Below are positions 47,282-54,226 of a stretch of DNA of 64,000 nt, piece by piece; the stretch's first letter is position 1; each line of letters starts with the position of its first letter. Origin of the DNA: an uncultured bacterium (GTDB taxonomy: Bacteria; Cyanobacteriota; Vampirovibrionia; Gastranaerophilales; Gastranaerophilaceae); the NCBI GenBank assembly GCA_949282215.1, contig CASDPF010000007.1, forward strand, positions 13,506-77,505, written 5' to 3'. The notes under the pieces were generated by a model. That model worked only from the letters and a program-made list of their open reading frames with translations, had not been told where the DNA came from and made no database searches. Made by a program: the position numbers and the translations under genes.

Positions 47282-48436
47282 TTATTTACAACTTAATTCT
47301 GTAATAATAGTTTTTACGCCGTCCCCGATATTGAATTTATGACCGAGTTTATATAAAGAAGCCTCTAAAGCTCCTACAGAAGCAATTAAATCTCTATCGC
47401 AGACAAACCCAAGTGTTCCCATTCTGAAAATTTTATCTTTCAGTTGATTTTGTCCATTTGCAACAACAATGTCATAATCTTCTTTTAGAGTTTTTCTTAT
47501 ATCAGGCACCGAAATCCCATCAGGCGGGAGAATAGAAGTAATAGCATAGCTTGCATTTGCATCATTTTCTACAAGAAGTTTAAGATTAATTGCACGAAGA
47601 GCTTTTCTTAAAGCCACAGAATGTCTTCTATGACGCTCATTTACATTGTCAATTCCTTCATCTTTAATCATTTTTAGTGCTGTATTAAGCCCTACAATTA
47701 AATTAACAGCAGGCGTAAATGGAGTGGAATTTGATTGAACAGATTTTCTATGAGAAGCCCAATCAAAGTAAAAACTAGGATGCTTACACTGTTCATAAAG
47801 TTTCCAAGCTTTCTCATTAGCAGTGAGAAAAGCCAGACCGGGAGGAATCATAAAACCTTTTTGAGAACCTGAAATAAGTACATCAATCCCCCATTCATCA
47901 GGTTTACAAGGCATAGCACAAACACTTGTCACACCATCTACTACAGATACAGCACCATGTTCTTTTATAATTGAGCATAAAGTCTTAATATCATTTGCAG
48001 CACCGGTCGATGTTTCACTATGAGTGAGAGTAACTATTTTTATCTTTTTTTCTTTATCTTCATCAAGTCTTTGTTTTAGAATTTCCGGATTAATTACTTC
48101 ACCTGCAGGAACTTCAATTTTTTCAACAACAGCACCTCTTGATTCAGCTATTTTAGCCCAACGGTTTCCAAAATTTCCTATGACAAGGCAAAGAACTTTA
48201 TCGCCAACATTTATAAGGTTTTCCAAAGCGGCACACATAGCACCGGTTCCGCTTGATGTAAACATAAATACATCATTTTGAGTTTGAAAAACATATTTGA
48301 GATTAGCATAAACTTCTTCTAAAATAGAGGAGAATTCCGAACTTCTATGTCCTATCGGGTGTTTGGCAATTTCTAACATAACAGATTCCGGAACCGGTGT
48401 AGGACCAGGAATCATTAAAAAAGTTTTATCTTTCAT
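47282..48436 (-). CDS. class V aminotransferase (AGXT/SerC-type; likely the phosphoserine aminotransferase of the operon)
   Basis: MIPGPTP..SGSQKG (PLP lysine). Operon context with serA and serB. Confidence 0.75.
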   Translation of the reverse strand: MKDKTFLMIPGPTPVPESVMLEIAKHPIGHRSSEFSSILEEVYANLKYVFQTQNDVFMFTSSGTGAMCAALENLINVGDKVLCLVIGNFGNRWAKIAESRGAVVEKIEVPAGEVINPEILKQRLDEDKEKKIKIVTLTHSETSTGAANDIKTLCSIIKEHGAVSVVDGVTSVCAMPCKPDEWGIDVLISGSQKGFMIPPGLAFLTANEKAWKLYEQCKHPSFYFDWASHRKSVQSNSTPFTPAVNLIVGLNTALKMIKDEGIDNVNERHRRHSVALRKALRAINLKLLVENDANASYAITSILPPDGISVPDIRKTLKEDYDIVVANGQNQLKDKIFRMGTLGFVCDRDLIASVGALEASLYKLGHKFNIGDGVKTIITELSCK

Positions 48437-48594
48437 AAATATCTCCTCCTATATTAATTATATTGTTATATACATGTACCAATAAGGGATAATTTTTAAT
48501 AAAAGTATATATATTTTTGTAATAAAATATTAAAAGAATTTTTTTTTAAAGATTTATAATTTCATTTTAAGGGAGTTTATAATTAGTTAATAAA

Positions 48595-48655
48595 TATTTT
48601 AATAAATCAAGAATTTATTTAGTTATTAACAAAATTTTTATGTATAATAACCGTA
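48595..48655 (+). promoter_or_regulatory. promoter copy 1 of the PLD genes (TATAAT 48643..48648, 7 nt before ATG; inverted repeat AATAAAT-N5-ATTTATT at 48601..48619)
   Basis: About 62 nt, identical at all but 1 position (by eye) to 51086..51146. No SD between the -10 box and the ATG. Confidence 0.6.
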
Positions 48656-50011
48656 ATGAAAAAGCTGTTTTTATTGATAATATTAATTATATTTTTGGGG
48701 GAATTATCTGTTTCGGCATCTGATAAAAATAATATTGTATCAAAAAATATTAATTCAAATATTCATATATTCTTTGTTAATCCCGTAAATAAGTCAAAAC
48801 CTGCCCGAAGTGGAGATGGTGAGGCTATAAAAGCATTATTAAAATTGATAAATAATGCACAAGAAAGTATTGATTTTGCTATTTATGGAATAAGTAATGA
48901 AGATGAAATTTTTCAAGCATTAATAAACGCACAAAACAAAGGAGTAAACGTTAGGGGTATTGTTGATATGGATAATGAAAAGAAAAATCCATACAAAGAT
49001 ACTTATGATTTACAGAAACAATTAAAAAATATAAAAACAGATTATAAGCAATTAACAGACTTTAAATCTTCTAAGTCTGATTACGTGCAACATGTAACTT
49101 ATAATATAGGTGGGAAAATTATTGAGGCTTCGTTTGTAAATGAAGGTATTAAAGATTACAACGATAAAATAATGCATAATAAATATTTTATTATTGATAA
49201 AAAGATTGTCTGGACTGGATCAATGAATATCAGTAATACTTGTGCAAGTTATAATTCAAATTCAAGTGTTGCTATAAAATCTGAAGAACTTGCTAAAATT
49301 TATACAGAAGATTTTGAGCAAATGTTTTTAAAAAATAAACATCATAGCGAAAAACAAAATAATATAAATACAAAATATATAAATGTTGATAACAATACAA
49401 GAATTATTGCTTTTCTTTTACCGGAAGATAAAGAAACTTATAATATAATTAGCGGTTATATTAATAGAGCTCAAAAATATATTTATGTCCCGATGTTCTT
49501 TTTTACACACACAAAATATTCTCAAGACTTAATTAATGCACGTAACAGAGGCGTAAAAGTAAAAATTATATTAGACGCTACTTCCGCTAGAACTGGCTAC
49601 TCTAAACATGAAATTATGAGAATGGCTGGTATTCCTGTGAAAATTGAAAATTGGGGCGGAAAAATGCATGAAAAATCTCTAATCATTGATGATAAATATT
49701 TATTAATTGGCTCAATGAATTTTACAAGTGGTGCTCATTACCAAAATGATGAAAACAGTCTATTAATTGAAAATAAAGAAATAGCAATAAAATCAAGAAA
49801 AAGGTTTGAAAAATTATGGAAATCAATACCTAATAAGTGGCTATATTCTATTCCAAAACCCGAAGGAATAGATTCAAAATATTCTTGTTTTGATAATATT
49901 GACAATGATCATGATGGTCTTATTGATGCAGATGATCCAGATTGTGCATGTTTTTATAAGGAAAAACAAAATAAATATATTTATAATCAAACAGGCCCTA
50001 TAATTGATTAA
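48656..50011 (+). CDS. exported phospholipase D-superfamily (HKD) nuclease-like protein with C-terminal EF-hand-like loop
   Basis: Signal peptide MKKLFLLIILIIFLGELSVSA|S. Two HxK(x4)D..GSxN motifs (MHNKYFIIDKKIVWTGSMN, MHEKSLIIDDKYLLIGSMN). DNDHDGLIDADD loop. Confidence 0.85.
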   Translation: MKKLFLLIILIIFLGELSVSASDKNNIVSKNINSNIHIFFVNPVNKSKPARSGDGEAIKALLKLINNAQESIDFAIYGISNEDEIFQALINAQNKGVNVRGIVDMDNEKKNPYKDTYDLQKQLKNIKTDYKQLTDFKSSKSDYVQHVTYNIGGKIIEASFVNEGIKDYNDKIMHNKYFIIDKKIVWTGSMNISNTCASYNSNSSVAIKSEELAKIYTEDFEQMFLKNKHHSEKQNNINTKYINVDNNTRIIAFLLPEDKETYNIISGYINRAQKYIYVPMFFFTHTKYSQDLINARNRGVKVKIILDATSARTGYSKHEIMRMAGIPVKIENWGGKMHEKSLIIDDKYLLIGSMNFTSGAHYQNDENSLLIENKEIAIKSRKRFEKLWKSIPNKWLYSIPKPEGIDSKYSCFDNIDNDHDGLIDADDPDCACFYKEKQNKYIYNQTGPIID

Positions 50012-50777
50012 TTAATGAAAGACTTTTATGACTTTTAGTTTCTTTTTTGTTTTTTACATAATTTGCTCGAATTTTTTTTATATTTTCAGGTAATATCATA
50101 TCTTTTAGACACATATTAATATTCCACCCGTATATTTTAGCTTTTTTATCGTTAAATTTTTCATACTCCATAGCTTTAAAAAATAAATTTGGATGATTTT
50201 CATATAAATTCAGCCAATCATTTTGTGATTGATAAAAGCAAAAGTAACAGCCAGAACGCTTACGCCATTTATAATATTCTGGAAGATTTATTCCAACATT
50301 ATACAAAATTTTAAATACATCATCTCGATTTATACAAAATTCTTGAAACGGATATTTTACAATAACCTGCTTATTGCTATTACTTATTCCTCGGCCTAAT
50401 TCATCAGATCTTATGCCAACATAAGTATAAATAATTGTATTTTTATTTTTTCCTAAATATTTTGATTTAATATATTTCTCATAGACTCGAATTTTTAAAT
50501 CTACAGTACACCAACGATTTACAATAGAAGGTAAAAATTTCCTAACATCGTATAAATGCTCAAAAGATTTTTCCGGTTTAAGGACAGTAATTTTTTTGTT
50601 TAAAAATATTTCTATTTTGTTTAAATAATCATAAGTTTCAGGTATCTCTTGCTCTGTATCACAAAAAACGAGTTCTAAATTTTCAAAAATCTCAGGCATA
50701 TTTTCTTTCATAAAGAATGCAAGTGCAGTGGAATCCTTTCCACCAGAGAGTGATAAAATATGATATTCTTTTTCCAT
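49998..50777 (-). CDS. PAPS-reductase-family PP-loop ATPase
   Basis: LSLSGGKDS PP-loop, NRWCT, GIRSDE and RSGCYFCF motifs. Convergent with, and overlapping by 14 nt, the PLD gene. Confidence 0.8.
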   Translation of the reverse strand: MEKEYHILSLSGGKDSTALAFFMKENMPEIFENLELVFCDTEQEIPETYDYLNKIEIFLNKKITVLKPEKSFEHLYDVRKFLPSIVNRWCTVDLKIRVYEKYIKSKYLGKNKNTIIYTYVGIRSDELGRGISNSNKQVIVKYPFQEFCINRDDVFKILYNVGINLPEYYKWRKRSGCYFCFYQSQNDWLNLYENHPNLFFKAMEYEKFNDKKAKIYGWNINMCLKDMILPENIKKIRANYVKNKKETKSHKSLSLINQL

Positions 50778-50809
50778 TAGTTCTCCTTATAATACTTATA
50801 TCAAAAGCA

Positions 50810-50917
50810 GCCCTTCGCTACTTACGCCCCGCCTACGCGTGCCGTGCGTAGCTACGCTGTCTAACAGGCCACTCAAAAATTCCGAGTTTTTGTCAACGCG
50901 GAATTTTCTCGGGAAAC
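50810..50917. other. GC-rich ~108-nt insertion in leader copy 1, flanked by direct repeat AAAAGCA
   Basis: Absent from leader copy 2. AAAAGCA occurs at 50803..50809 and 50918..50924. Contains the palindrome GCGTAGCTACGC and a 9-bp stem AAAATTCCG/CGGAATTTT. Confidence 0.7.
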
Positions 50918-51075
50918 AAAAGCACAGCAAAGCATCTGCTTCACTGTGCTTAAAAACTTTCAGTTACTCCTTGCAAACACATAAATCATCTTTGGATTTC
51001 GCTCAACAAGAGGTGTATCACCATTTACATTATTACTGTAAAATGACAAATACGATTATTACTTAATTTTTTTTT
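50915..51075 (-). promoter_or_regulatory. conserved leader RNA copy 1 upstream of the PP-loop gene (terminator-like hairpin 50950..50921)
   Basis: About 90% identical by eye to 53720..53880. Minus strand reads AGCACAGUGAAGCAGAUGCUUUGCUGUGCU followed by UUUUGU. Confidence 0.6.
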
Positions 51076-51085
51076 AAGATTTTAC

Positions 51086-51146
51086 TATTTTAATAAATCA
51101 AGAATTTATTTAGTTATTAACATAATTTTTATGTATAATAACCGTA
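51086..51146 (+). promoter_or_regulatory. promoter copy 2 of the PLD genes (TATAAT 51134..51139, 7 nt before ATG)
   Basis: Near-identical to 48595..48655, including the AATAAAT-N5-ATTTATT inverted repeat. Confidence 0.6.
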
Positions 51147-51881
51147 ATGAAAAAGATTTTAGCAATTGCATTTATACTAACGACTTTGTCAATTTTACCT
51201 GTATCAGCTTCTGGCGAACATAAGGTAATTAAAATTATTGATGGGGATACTATATATGTTGACTTTAACGATAATGGAATTGCGGAACAAGATGAAAAAG
51301 TTCGAGTCAATGGAATTGATACGTTTGAAACTAAACTCAATGACGGACTAAATTGGCAAATGAAACTATATAACCTTACTCAAGATGAAGCTTTAGGACT
51401 TGGGTATTACGGAAAAGAGTTTGCTAAAAAAGAGCTGCTAAATAAACCAGTAAGAGCTGAATACACCGCAGAAGAAAAGTTTGATAAAAATAATCGACAT
51501 TTGATGTCTTTATACTATGATTGCGATAGACAAGGCAAATGCAAAAGTTACGAACAAGAAGTTTTGAAAGCAGGACTTGCAACAATTTATACAAAATCAA
51601 ACCTTGCAGATAAATTAAAGCCTTATGAGAATACAGATAAAATAAAACAAAATGCTAAAAGAACACATAAATTGAATCTTGTTGTATTAAATTATAAAAA
51701 CGGTAAATATCACAAAACTACTTGTGAATACGCTTTTTTAGCTAGTCAACAAGAGTTAATTAAAAAGACTTCAAAATATATTCCTTCATCTTGTTGTTTT
51801 AATATTCCAGAAAGAAAACAACATAATTATCCACATAAAGACATTAAATTAAATAGAGATATCTCTCTGTATTTTTGTTGA
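51147..51881 (+). CDS. exported staphylococcal-nuclease (SNase)-like domain protein; upstream part of a frameshifted SNase-PLD gene
   Basis: Signal peptide MKKILAIAFILTTLSILPVSA|S. IIDGDTIYVDF..KVRVNGIDTFE is the SNase motif. The ORF ends inside the frame-overlap window 51853..51881. Confidence 0.75.
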   Translation: MKKILAIAFILTTLSILPVSASGEHKVIKIIDGDTIYVDFNDNGIAEQDEKVRVNGIDTFETKLNDGLNWQMKLYNLTQDEALGLGYYGKEFAKKELLNKPVRAEYTAEEKFDKNNRHLMSLYYDCDRQGKCKSYEQEVLKAGLATIYTKSNLADKLKPYENTDKIKQNAKRTHKLNLVVLNYKNGKYHKTTCEYAFLASQQELIKKTSKYIPSSCCFNIPERKQHNYPHKDIKLNRDISLYFC

Positions 51882-51939
51882 CCCTACAAAAAATGAATTT
51901 CCTAAAAATGAATGCTCTTCTCCTAACTGTAAAGCATTA

Positions 51940-52914
51940 TTGAATATTATTCAAAGTGCAAATGATACAATAGATTTTGCTTTATATGGATTTAACGAGC
52001 AAGATGATATTTTAGATGCACTAATCCAAGCACAATACAGAGGAGTTAAAATCAGAGGAGTTGTTGATAAAGATGAAGCTGAGTCCTATTACGACACAAA
52101 AAAATTGTATGAATACTTTGAAAATATAAAAACAGATACAGAAACCTCAATAGCTAAAAAACAACAAGATGAAAAATTTACAAGAGCAAGACACGCTTTA
52201 ATGCATAATAAATTCTTTATTGTAGATGATAAGTACGTCTGGACTGGTTCTACAAACGTTTCATCAAGTTGTATGACACTAAATGCAAATTCCTCTGTAC
52301 TTATAAACTCATCAAAAATTGCAGAACTATATAAAAAAGAATTTGAACAAATGTATATTGGAGAGAGATTTCACGGTAATAAAGAACTAATTAAGAATAA
52401 TGAACATATTAAACTTAATAATGGTGAGACTGATGTATCTGTTTATTTTTCTCCAAAAGCAGAAGCTATCACAAACTATGTGAGACCAATAATACAAAGT
52501 GCAAAAACTTCCATTCATATATCGATGTTTTATTTAACGCATCGAAAAATAGTACAAGATTTAATAGATGCTAAAAATAGAGGAGTAGATGTAAAAATAA
52601 TATTAGATGGCGATTTTGTTGCTGATGGATATTCTCCACATGAAAAATTGCGTGCTGCTAATGTCCCAGTAAAAATAGAAAATTGGAAAGGTCGTATGCA
52701 TATGAAAAATGCAGTTATAGATGGTAAAATTTCTATTTTAGGTTCAACAAATTGGACTTCAACAGCAGAACTTGTGAATGACGAAAATATGCTAATCATA
52801 ATTGATGAAAAAATAGCTAAAGATGTTGAAAATAATTTCCAGAAATTATGGAAAACAATACCGGATAATTGGTTATTTTTAACACCTGAATTCAGAGTAA
52901 AACCTAAAAAATAA
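51940..52914 (+). CDS. phospholipase D-superfamily (HKD) nuclease-like domain; downstream part of the frameshifted SNase-PLD gene
   Basis: MHNKFFIVDDKYVWTGSTN and MHMKNAVIDGKISILGSTN HKD motifs. The frame is open from 51853 and there encodes CIFVDPTKNEF, which aligns with HIFFVNPVNKS of PLD1. Confidence 0.75.
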   Translation: MNIIQSANDTIDFALYGFNEQDDILDALIQAQYRGVKIRGVVDKDEAESYYDTKKLYEYFENIKTDTETSIAKKQQDEKFTRARHALMHNKFFIVDDKYVWTGSTNVSSSCMTLNANSSVLINSSKIAELYKKEFEQMYIGERFHGNKELIKNNEHIKLNNGETDVSVYFSPKAEAITNYVRPIIQSAKTSIHISMFYLTHRKIVQDLIDAKNRGVDVKIILDGDFVADGYSPHEKLRAANVPVKIENWKGRMHMKNAVIDGKISILGSTNWTSTAELVNDENMLIIIDEKIAKDVENNFQKLWKTIPDNWLFLTPEFRVKPKK

Positions 52915-53700
52915 CTAATATATTTCAAGTAAATTCTTAAAATGTGCTTCCTTATCTAGTTTTTTATCGGAATATTTTTTTCTAATAGCCTTTATATTTT
53001 CGGGTTTAATCATATCTTCAAGAGTTATATCTGAACGCCATCCAAAATGTCCCTTTTTGATATTTTTACAATTTTTATATTCATATTCCATTGCTTTTTT
53101 GTATAGTTCCGGGTGATGTTCATATAAATTTAACCATTCTAATTTTGATTGATAAAAACAGAAAAAACAACCTGAACGAGATTTCCATCTCATGTATTCA
53201 GGAAAACCAATTCCTGAGTTATTTAAAATATCATATATATCTTTCTTGATTAAACCATCCTCAACAAATAAAAACTTTTCTTTTATGTATGGTTTATTGC
53301 TTGTTGCCGTTTTAACTCTTTGAGGTTCATCTGCTCTAATACCTATATATAAGTTAATATACTTACAATTTTCATTATTTATAATACTTTTAAACATATT
53401 TTGAATAGTTTTTGTTTTTAATTCTACGGTACACCAACGATTTTGAGGTGTTGGTAAAATATTACGTGTTTCATAAATATGCTGAAAACTAACTGGAGGT
53501 TTTAATCTTGTAATTTTTTTGCCCAAAAATATTTCTAATTTATTCAAGTAATCATATAATTCTGGTAATTCAAGTTCTGTATCACAAAAATAGTATTGAA
53601 TTTCTTTATGAATATTAGGATAGTTCTCTTTTATATATAAAGCCAATGCTGCTGAATCTTTACCACCAGAGAGAGATAAAATATGATATTCTTTTTCCAT
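52915..53700 (-). CDS. PAPS-reductase-family PP-loop ATPase (paralog of 49998..50777)
   Basis: LSLSGGKDS, NRWCT, GIRADE and RSGCFFCF motifs. Its stop codon abuts the PLD2 stop codon. Confidence 0.8.
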   Translation of the reverse strand: MEKEYHILSLSGGKDSAALALYIKENYPNIHKEIQYYFCDTELELPELYDYLNKLEIFLGKKITRLKPPVSFQHIYETRNILPTPQNRWCTVELKTKTIQNMFKSIINNENCKYINLYIGIRADEPQRVKTATSNKPYIKEKFLFVEDGLIKKDIYDILNNSGIGFPEYMRWKSRSGCFFCFYQSKLEWLNLYEHHPELYKKAMEYEYKNCKNIKKGHFGWRSDITLEDMIKPENIKAIRKKYSDKKLDKEAHFKNLLEIY

Positions 53701-53880
53701 TCGTTCTCCTTATAATAAGCTACACAAAAGCACAGCAAAGCATCTGCTTCACTGTGCTAAAAACTTTCAGTTACTCCTTGCAAACACGAAAATCATCTAT
53801 GGATTAAAGCTTAACAAGAGGTGTATTACCTTTTACATTATTACTGCAAAATGACAAATATGACTATTACTTAATTTTTT
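53701..53880 (-). promoter_or_regulatory. conserved leader RNA copy 2 upstream of the PP-loop gene (terminator-like hairpin 53758..53729, U-run 53728..53723)
   Basis: Minus strand reads ..CACCUCUUGUU..UUGCAAGGAGUAACUGAAAG..AGCACAGUGAAGCA-GA-UGCUUUGCUGUGCU-UUUUGU, then 20 nt later AAGGAG-N6-ATG. Confidence 0.6.
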
Positions 53881-54031
53881 TTTAAGGTTTTACAATTTTC
53901 TCTTTTTACTAATTAAAAAAAAGAATTCCAATCTGCACCTTTAAAATTCCAAAAAGAGAATTTAGGAGATATTTTAATAAAAATTGGTAAAAATTAAGTT
54001 TAAAAATTTCTCTAAATAAAATTACATATCG

Positions 54032-54057
54032 AAAACCGCCCACACTGGGCGGTTTTT
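54032..54057. terminator. bidirectional intrinsic terminator downstream of tRNA-Ser
   Basis: AAAACCGCCC-acact-GGGCGGTTTTT. Confidence 0.75.
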
Positions 54058-54100
54058 CAAAATTATATCTTCACCAACTCCTAATCTTTATACTAAAAAA

Positions 54101-54189
54101 CGGAGTAATAGGGATTTGAACCCTAGATGCAGGATAACCCACATAACACCTTAGCAGGGTGCCGCCTTCAGCCACTCGGCCATTACTCC
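54101..54189 (-). tRNA. tRNA-Ser (anticodon GCU)
   Basis: Minus strand reads GGAGTAATGGCCGAGTGGCTGAAGGC..GCACC-CTGCTAA-GGTGT, then a long variable arm, then AGGGTTCAAATCCCTATTACTCCG. Confidence 0.85.
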
Positions 54190-54197
54190 ATTTCTGT

Positions 54198-54226
54198 TAT
54201 TTATTTGTCATGCTGAAACAGTTCAA
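54198..54226 (-). promoter_or_regulatory. candidate promoter TTGAAC-N17-TAAATA for tRNA-Ser
   Basis: Read on the minus strand. The -10 box ends about 8 nt before the tRNA 5' end. Confidence 0.4.

Follow-up and report, generated by a model that had tools for sequence, protein, structure and literature searches.

In a 64,000-nucleotide (nt) stretch of DNA from an uncultured bacterium of the Gastranaerophilales (contig CASDPF010000007.1, positions 13,506 to 77,505; hereafter the window), two genes for SspD-like proteins of the PP-loop/PAPS-reductase kind are each preceded, on the minus strand, by a copy of the same non-coding leader. An earlier note on this stretch had proposed that the leader is a candidate new cis-regulatory RNA or small RNA with a terminator-like hairpin directly upstream of both genes. 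What stands of this proposal is a non-coding unit that is conserved, is absent from the catalogue of RNA families and belongs in cis with its genes, and the sequences compared here point to a genuine, lineage-restricted candidate attenuator. The leader is conserved between sharp borders, is linked in cis to the genes that follow it and contains a terminator hairpin. We put at roughly 0.55 the probability that it is a cis-acting transcription attenuator whose first structured part, here called domain 1, is recognised by some factor.

The two leaders lie at ~53722-53887 (copy 2) and ~50918-51075 (copy 1), and from CTTAAAAAAAAATTAAG to GCTTTTGT they agree at 151 of 164 positions (92%), close to the 90% first noticed. 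Near-identity runs on into the first ~47 nt of the coding sequence, much as reported before (~50 nt), and the two encoded proteins are 54% identical, against an earlier estimate of about 55%. Leader pieces of 24 and 28 nt each occur exactly twice in the window, where 0 occurrences are expected by chance. Read in the direction of transcription, the element consists of a promoter, domain 1 (a P1 helix around a small hairpin, then an invariant tail), a terminator and a Shine-Dalgarno sequence (SD); the untranslated leader up to the end of the terminator is ~110 nt long. The conserved length of ~160 nt originally described holds between the two window copies, but across all copies conservation starts only, and sharply, at the AATAAT box (AATAATRTAAAWGG, 53842). 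The -35 region varies between loci, the sequence just upstream of AATAATRTAAAWGG falls into several unrelated flank classes, and the 45 nt beyond the AATAAT box (to 53887) are shared only with copies elsewhere that have the same upstream flank class. The A-rich dyad of copy 2, CCTTAAAAAAAAATTAAG, is a possible UP element or operator; other flank classes carry AATTAAAAAATNATTAAAA, which is related to it.

The hairpin of copy 2, AGCACAGUGAAGC-AGAU-GCUUUGCUGUGCU (53729-53758), forms one continuous stem of 13 base pairs (bp), including G.U pairs and 6 G-C pairs, rather than the 7+5 bp proposed before, and its folding energy of -19.8 kcal/mol sets it well apart from shuffled sequences (z = -4.1). 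It thus has the features of an intrinsic terminator, a stable G+C-containing stem-loop followed by a U-run, the U-run in this case being short (3-4 U). From the AATAAT box to the hairpin is 72 nt, and from the hairpin to the SD 17 nt; these 17 nt leave no room for a promoter, and the promoter scan lists no site there, which would put the terminator behind the only plausible (predicted) promoter and ahead of the SD, as had been suggested. The SD is separated from the start codon by 5 nt, not by the 6 nt given previously. In copy 2 the hairpin does stand directly before the SD, but in copy 1 a GC-rich insert of ~115-120 nt, which had gone unmentioned, lies between the two.

If the leader is an attenuator, transcription would start ~7 nt past the conserved AATAAT box (in copy 2, near 53830), and the first ~65 nt of the transcript, domain 1, would form the modest P1/P2 hairpin followed by the invariant single-stranded tail GGAGUARCUGA. 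RNA polymerase would then encounter the strong intrinsic terminator 17 nt ahead of the SD, where most transcripts would stop to give a ~108-nt RNA, so that the gene would be made by read-through only. Because domain 1 is conserved in sequence and not in stability, and is constant before differing terminators, it is the likely site at which a trans-acting factor would set the rate of read-through, this factor being more probably a protein or the transcription complex than a metabolite. With one and the same leader in front of every cassette, the paralogous cassettes of a genome would all be co-regulated.

The leader was followed into other genomes by pattern scans and by a covariance model. The 19-mer TGCAAGGAGTAACTGAAAG has exact matches at 30 loci in 17 assemblies of a collection with one genome per species, with up to 5 leader loci in one assembly; by their titles 10 of these assemblies are Candidatus Gastranaerophilales, and 7 are uncultured bacterium, uncultured Clostridium sp. 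or Clostridium sp. CAG:768. A looser two-anchor pattern added 17 further loci in metagenome contigs, for which the source is the human gut where names give one, and the covariance model built from the copies (R1), which matches copy 1 at 139.6 bits (E = 9e-26), picked up others without the exact 19-mer. Together the scans and the model gave 51 matches, 46 of them distinct. The sequence GTTTGCAAGGAGTA is invariant in the 46 distinct copies, only part of it having been fixed by the scan patterns (TGCAAGGAGTA in the 19-mer scan, TTTGCAAGGAGTA in the two-anchor scan). All copies with readable downstream sequence precede either an SspD-like gene or an operon in which a 456-amino-acid (aa) protein, matching the C-terminal third of SspC, is followed by an SspD-like gene. 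The SspD-like genes behind the leader start MEKEYHILSLSGGKDS, their ATG lying 63-64 nt past the 19-mer (179-183 nt in a long form of the leader), and the leader is common to at least 14 SspD body types that are <80% identical.

The expectation that homologous genes elsewhere would carry the element is borne out by these 51 copies before at least 14 gene types, but it fails for more distant relatives. SspD homologues from other lineages that are 55-67% identical to that of window copy 2 (L002-L007 and L059-L062; loci retrieved for comparison carry L numbers) lack domain 1. A blastn search with the leader found nothing in L001-L007, the covariance model had no match in L001, L002, L006 or L007 (identity to window copy 2 of 97% and 67%), and without its filters it returned nothing above noise in these four loci or in L059-L062 (55-57% identical). 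Missing both from distant homologues and from a 97%-identical operon orthologue, L001, the leader is specific to a clade and does not belong to the gene family at large. A 19-mer scan of viral contigs gave 0 matches, and phage and plasmid collections contained no blastn match to the leader. In another taxon (L006, 5100-5150, and L007, 2150-2240) the SD of the SspD homologue follows 8 nt behind a terminator hairpin of another sequence, AAAAAGTTCTGTAGAATTTCTACAGAACTTTTTT, which is tandemly duplicated in L007. Four JGI contigs that matched the metagenome pattern (L042, L043, L046 and L051) were set aside as unrelated, since the covariance model had no match in them; they come from an unrelated organism of higher GC content and share an intergenic 20-mer, TTTTTGCAAGGAGTAACTGA, probably by coincidence.

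In keeping with the failure of the earlier note to place the leader in a known riboswitch class, a comparison of the whole window with Rfam 15 at gathering thresholds returned two tRNAs only, and permissive scans of 50600-54200 and of 50770-51040 (271 nt, at maximum sensitivity) gave chance-level matches far below threshold. The leader motif is not described in the literature searched, nor was it found in the accessible portion of a catalogue of structured RNAs from the human microbiome; a literature search on Gastranaerophilales and riboswitches likewise yielded no report of a riboswitch or comparable motif from this lineage.

A local gene-conversion tract had been named as an explanation that would undo the proposal. 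To weigh it we compared 354 paralogue-type pairs, in which the SspD bodies are <80% identical. Mean identity is 0.40-0.52 in the upstream flank, in which a ~30-nt stretch with the A-rich dyad forms an island (0.65-0.88); between the -10 box and the last position of the terminator it reaches 0.86-1.00, and in the spacer and SD it is 0.7-0.8. At third codon positions it is 0.85 over codons 1-10, 0.50 over codons 11-20 and 0.47-0.64 over later codons, so that the leader is more conserved than neighbouring synonymous sites. The leader is thus bracketed by far more diverged sequence, and as the borders of conversion tracts are not expected to be identical everywhere, purifying selection is the simpler explanation; conversion alone would be marked by variable borders and by an identity that stays high at adjacent neutral sites, and identity instead drops upstream of the -10 box and at third positions from codon 11. 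A gene-conversion tract alone would therefore explain the conservation of the leader poorly. Recombination has nevertheless left traces. The gene body of copy 2 shares 95% DNA identity with L001, where an SspC-like gene lies directly upstream and there is no leader; the two differ in synonymous codons at residues ~8-12, and over its first ~10 codons copy 2 shares its codon choice with other leader-linked paralogues. The leader and the first ~10 codons thus behave as one transferable unit.

With respect to structure, 99.7% of pair cells in the model-fitted alignment hold standard pairs, a share that falls to ~50% once partners are slid. Pairing mostly survives the single-sided changes seen in P1 (U.G to C-G, G.U to A-U, A-U to G.U) and in the terminator, and the terminator stem of L013 contains one double change. 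In a manual comparison of P2, a C-G pair is replaced by A-U (CAAAUC/GAUUUG versus AAAAUC/GAUUUU) and, in L013, an A-U pair by U-A. Variability is greatest in the two hairpin loops and at the P1/P2 junction. Domain 1 is conserved mostly in sequence rather than in stability.

Several other ways of reading the same letters were tried and rejected. The anti-SD switch implied by the earlier note, in which an upstream CCUCUUG would pair with the true SD, is not a conserved feature, the pairing being at chance level and lost in many variants. A leader peptide, ATG-ATT-TTC-GTG-TTT-GCA-AGG-AGT-AAC-TGA, is open in many copies, has a TGA at codon 3 in one group, lacks an SD and has lost its ATG in L016; the ATGGTG... 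open reading frame (ORF) of copy 1 is absent from copy 2. A link to a T-box or to tRNA-Ser fails as well, the AGC of the junction not being conserved (AAAC in L022, L038 and L040) and Rfam giving no T-box match.

The leader occurs in three forms. The long form comprises 7 copies, window copy 1 and those of L012, L015, L017, L026, L027 and L034, in which the optional insert holds a 9-10-bp hairpin with U5 and then an almost invariant ~60-nt GC-rich core, GACAGCGUAGCUACGCACGGCACGCGUAGGCGGGGCGUAAGUAGCGAAGG, ending CUGCUUUU. In the 6 other leaders 83-121 nt of the insert align at 89-97% identity, and mean column identity in the 7-copy alignment is 92%. This GC-rich insert sits in a genome of ~30% GC and has no Rfam match; an origin as a miniature inverted-repeat transposable element or other dispersed repeat is rejected, the insert having been seen only at this leader position within the ~0.5 Mb of fetched loci. 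The SspC-type leaders (5 sequences from ~4 independent loci) retain domain 1 and have, in the place of the terminator, a hairpin of 7-8 bp that covaries (GAGAUUU/AAAUCUC versus GAGAAUU/AAUUCUC); they run ~100 nt further and finish, 20 nt short of the SD, in a canonical terminator (CAGACUC..GAGUCUG-U6). In all three forms domain 1 stands at the front and is followed by one to three hairpins with U-runs and, behind these, by the ribosome-binding site.

A number of results count against an attenuator. Neither a mutually exclusive antiterminator nor a defined binding site for an effector was found, inspection of sequences and folds having yielded no convincing antiterminator but only alternatives of 4-6 bp. 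Domain 1 is not more stable than shuffled sequence (-8.3 kcal/mol, z = +0.6). Covariation, the check that had been suggested for the fold, is not significant: a double-sided change occurs in 1 of 26 pairs, and shuffled columns do as well as the real ones in 23 of 500 trials. This emptiness reflects copies that are too alike and, since distant homologues lack the leader, the want of a diverged one for the analysis. Pairing of the 5' strand of P1 with the true SD is at the level of chance (mean z = -0.45 over 35 distinct copies), and there is no hint of a ligand. As the copies were found by exact patterns taken from the element, conservation at the pattern positions is circular. The promoter region of the exported-nuclease genes at the other end of the cassettes is also conserved, and conserved ends could therefore partly reflect recombination. 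Finally, we infer, rather than observe, the start site, the termination itself, the control of read-through and the identity of the effector.

Recombination is the core of the rival explanation in which the leader acts mainly as DNA, as a constant region made up of a shared promoter or operator and a homology 'handle' that recombination or gene conversion keeps uniform and that allows variable SspD/nuclease cassettes to move between loci; the hairpin would act as an ordinary terminator that insulates or dampens, with no sensing by domain 1. We consider this unlikely. The same SspD body type does recur with different flanks and with leaders of both the short and the long form, copy 2 is chimeric relative to L001 with a breakpoint near codon 10, and between tRNA-Ser and serC L016 has a single cassette of another type where the window has two; the far cassette end is conserved too (SNase ~80%, and the nuclease promoter) beside a middle that is 40-55% identical, and the lack of significant covariation is as this explanation would have it. 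Conversion, however, would need the same two borders in every copy: just upstream of the -10 box, and at synonymous sites from codon 11, identity falls as low as in the most diverged neighbouring sequence. Moreover, the variable positions cluster in loops and junctions, changes in the stems keep pairing, and domain 1 is retained where the rest of the leader differs.

The element could also be a stand-alone small RNA gene of ~108 nt, its product either a component of the cassette (for example an antitoxin-like or guide-like RNA, or a substrate of the PP-loop enzyme or of the nuclease) or a trans regulator, with the downstream gene receiving only incidental read-through. The promoter-like box directly before it, the strong terminator at its end, a conservation of sequence rather than stability, an invariant 21-nt single-stranded tail suited to base pairing or protein recognition, an RNA dose that would be high with up to 5 nearly identical copies in a genome, and intact leaders kept before frameshifted SspD copies (L008:6265 and L024) are all compatible with it. 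Nonetheless, every copy with readable downstream sequence precedes an SspD-like or SspC-like start, the 17 nt before the SD are too short to hold another promoter for the gene, and the window contains no complementary target at up to 3 mismatches; the SspC-type leaders, with their weaker hairpin and ~100 nt more, also suit a leader better than a discrete small RNA, and we regard this explanation as distinctly improbable. A metabolite-binding riboswitch, with domain 1 as aptamer and the terminator as expression platform, is very improbable. The order of promoter, conserved structured domain, terminator and SD is the classical one, with a constant domain before varying platforms, but the fold of domain 1 is small and weak, its P1/P2 junction varies freely (UUU, AA or C), no antiterminator came out of the inspection, Rfam has no match, and the genes concerned are hypervariable DNA-modification or nuclease-like cassettes, not one metabolic or transport pathway. 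The attenuator with a factor-recognised domain 1 is thus the explanation we favour. The coordinates of the leader parts and of the genes around them are collected in Table 1.

Table 1. Features of the two leaders and the adjoining cassette genes (positions in the window)
Feature	Position	Strand	Details and basis
A-rich dyad upstream of copy 2 promoter	53870-53887	-	Read from sequence
Predicted sigma-70-type promoter, copy 2	53837-53866	-	TAGTCA, 18 nt, AATAAT; consensus scan
-10 box, copy 2	53837-53842	-	AATAAT
Domain 1, copy 2	53766-53830	-	RNAalifold consensus, single-sequence fold, P2 listing
P0	53828-53830 with 53820-53822	-	GGU/ACC
P1	53809-53819 with 53776-53785	-	10 bp; UCUUGU-U-AAGC with GUUUGCAAGG
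P2, inner hairpin	53802-53805 with 53791-53794	-	4-6 bp; AAUC with GAUU; loop ends AGAU
Domain 1 tail			GGAGUARCUGA; in copy 2 begins AGUAACUGA
Intrinsic-terminator-like hairpin and tail, copy 2	53722-53758	-	Tail UUUGUGU; terminator scan, fold
Spacer, SD and ATG of SspD-like gene 2	53698-53721	-	AAGGAG 53706-53711; ATG 53698-53700
Promoter region and A-rich dyad, copy 1	51029-51075	-	AATAAT 51029-51034; flank class as copy 2
Domain 1 and terminator hairpin, copy 1	50918-51027	-	Stem 50920-50951; terminator scan, covariance-model match
Optional GC-rich insert, copy 1	50795-50917	-	Between terminator and SD
SspD-like PP-loop/PAPS-reductase gene, copy 2	52915-53700	-	261 aa; PADLOC SspD E = 1.8e-85; Pfam PAPS_reduct
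SspD-like gene region, copy 1	49998-50794	-	Gene 49998-50777, 259 aa; SD 50783-50788; PADLOC SspD E = 9.7e-84
PLD/HKD-family nuclease-like gene (PLD1), convergent with copy 1	48656-50011	+	Pfam PLDc_2; NucT and DrmC models
Convergent partner of copy 2	51147-52914	+	SNase-domain gene 51147-51881, then PLD-family gene (PLD2) 51940-52914

Both downstream proteins belong with SspD, each having the SLSGGKDS motif and matching positions 2-244 of 277 of the PADLOC profile, and that of copy 1 also matches Pfam PAPS_reduct. The only solved-structure relative found by sequence for the protein encoded at 52915-53700 is PptA (chain 21fy_C, E = 3.5e-6), and the literature searched gave no account of what PptA is. 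The SspD-like genes abut or overlap a convergent PLD/HKD gene, which is often preceded by an SNase-domain gene and in some genomes is fused with it; among structures in the PDB, the relatives of PLD1 are of the NucT, Nuc and Zucchini type. Together these genes make up a multi-copy, hypervariable cassette family (window 48656-53700; L008-L062) in which the nuclease gene always adjoins the SspD-like gene. Across cassettes SNase is ~80% identical and the first 60 residues of SspD are conserved, compared with ~50% identity in the rest of SspD and 40-50% in PLD. The convergent SspD/PLD pair is also present in taxa that lack the leader, once beside type I-C CRISPR-Cas genes, and a description of such an SspD-like/PLD-SNase cassette family was not found in the literature searched. 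In the window the cassettes lie between a tRNA-Ser(GCU) gene (54100-54190, minus strand, with its own terminator near 54040-54065) and serC/serA-like genes (serC-like at 47282), an interval that, differing as it does between L016 and the window, is a variable hotspot. Intact leaders also stand before frameshifted SspD-like genes at L008:6265-7147 (MEKEYHILSLSGGKIPPL) and L024:3126-3300 (MEKKSYFISIKQ), which are apparent recent pseudogenes.

The nuclease partners look exported, which would be unexpected of a restriction-type partner: by eye, the N-termini of PLD1 (48656-48730, MKKLFLLIILIIFLGELSVSAS) and of SNase (51147-51215, MKKILAIAFILTTLSILPVSAS) are signal-peptide-like. Their genes share a nearly identical upstream region of ~65 nt (48592-48658 and 51083-51149, plus strand) that ends TGTATAATAACCGTA-ATG, with a consensus -10 box 7 nt before the start codon and no SD. 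A -10 box so near the start, and no SD, suggests that these genes have leaderless mRNAs; starts resembling TATAAT-AGCCGTA-ATG also occur in L008, L013 and L035. SNase and PLD2 are separate ORFs in the window, where 51882-51939 (plus strand) lies between them, and in L020; in L001 (2029-3798) they form one ORF of 589 aa. The split in the window may represent either a frameshift or pseudogene, or a true split.

If the leader is a controlled attenuator, it would represent a new cis-regulatory RNA family from the Melainabacteria/Gastranaerophilales, and a rare instance in which genes resembling a defence or DNA-modification system are controlled at the level of RNA. A bolder proposition, which we hold to be rather doubtful, is that it founds a new class of regulatory RNA, either with domain 1 as the recognition element of an antitermination switch that would activate together at least 14 hypervariable cassettes, each with an SspD-like enzyme and an exported PLD/SNase nuclease, or with the ~108-nt RNA as a component of the cassette; in either case, if true, this would be a previously undescribed RNA-controlled DNA-modification/nuclease system in non-photosynthetic cyanobacteria of the human gut. 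The constant leader also offers a handle with which to find, count and study these cassettes in gut metagenomes and metatranscriptomes.

With the SspABCD-SspE and SspFGH phosphorothioation defence systems the cassettes have in common a protein that matches the PADLOC SspD profile, a nuclease gene next to it and, in some cases (L001, L008, L013 and L035), a further protein that matches the C-terminal third of SspC. They differ from those systems in lacking SspA, SspB and the ATPase part of SspC, in having as partner a PLD/HKD protein, with or without SNase, that carries a signal-peptide-like N-terminus, instead of SspE or SspFGH, and in being multi-copy and hypervariable. Neither window cassette has an adjoining SspA, SspB or SspC gene.

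As for the leader itself, riboswitches resemble it in joining a constant 5' domain to interchangeable terminator platforms, and it differs from them in its weak fold, its variable junction and the lack of any hint of a ligand or of significant covariation. Intrinsic-terminator attenuators can also be controlled by RNA-binding proteins, as they are by PyrR, by TRAP and by LicT/SacY acting on RAT sites. The leader is like these in that a promoter-proximal conserved RNA is followed by a strong hairpin and U-run directly before the SD, and unlike them in having no antiterminator alternative, no recognisable repeat of a binding site and no match to an Rfam leader. Processive antitermination likewise depends on leader elements, among them EAR RNA, phage put RNA, boxA/Nus and the targets of NusG paralogues (the UpxY and LoaP leaders). 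Here the regulated units are single genes, not long operons, and the permissive Rfam scans gave no match to EAR or other antitermination RNAs; the sequence ACCUCUUGUUAAGC bears a weak and loose likeness to boxA (GCUCUUUAACAA). In other respects the arrangement corresponds, with a conserved element at the start of the transcript followed by one to three terminators in series, and with the same leader before several paralogous loci of a genome, as in the capsule loci of Bacteroides. Taken together, these comparisons suggest that the leader functionally most resembles factor-dependent terminator attenuators or the leaders of processive antitermination.

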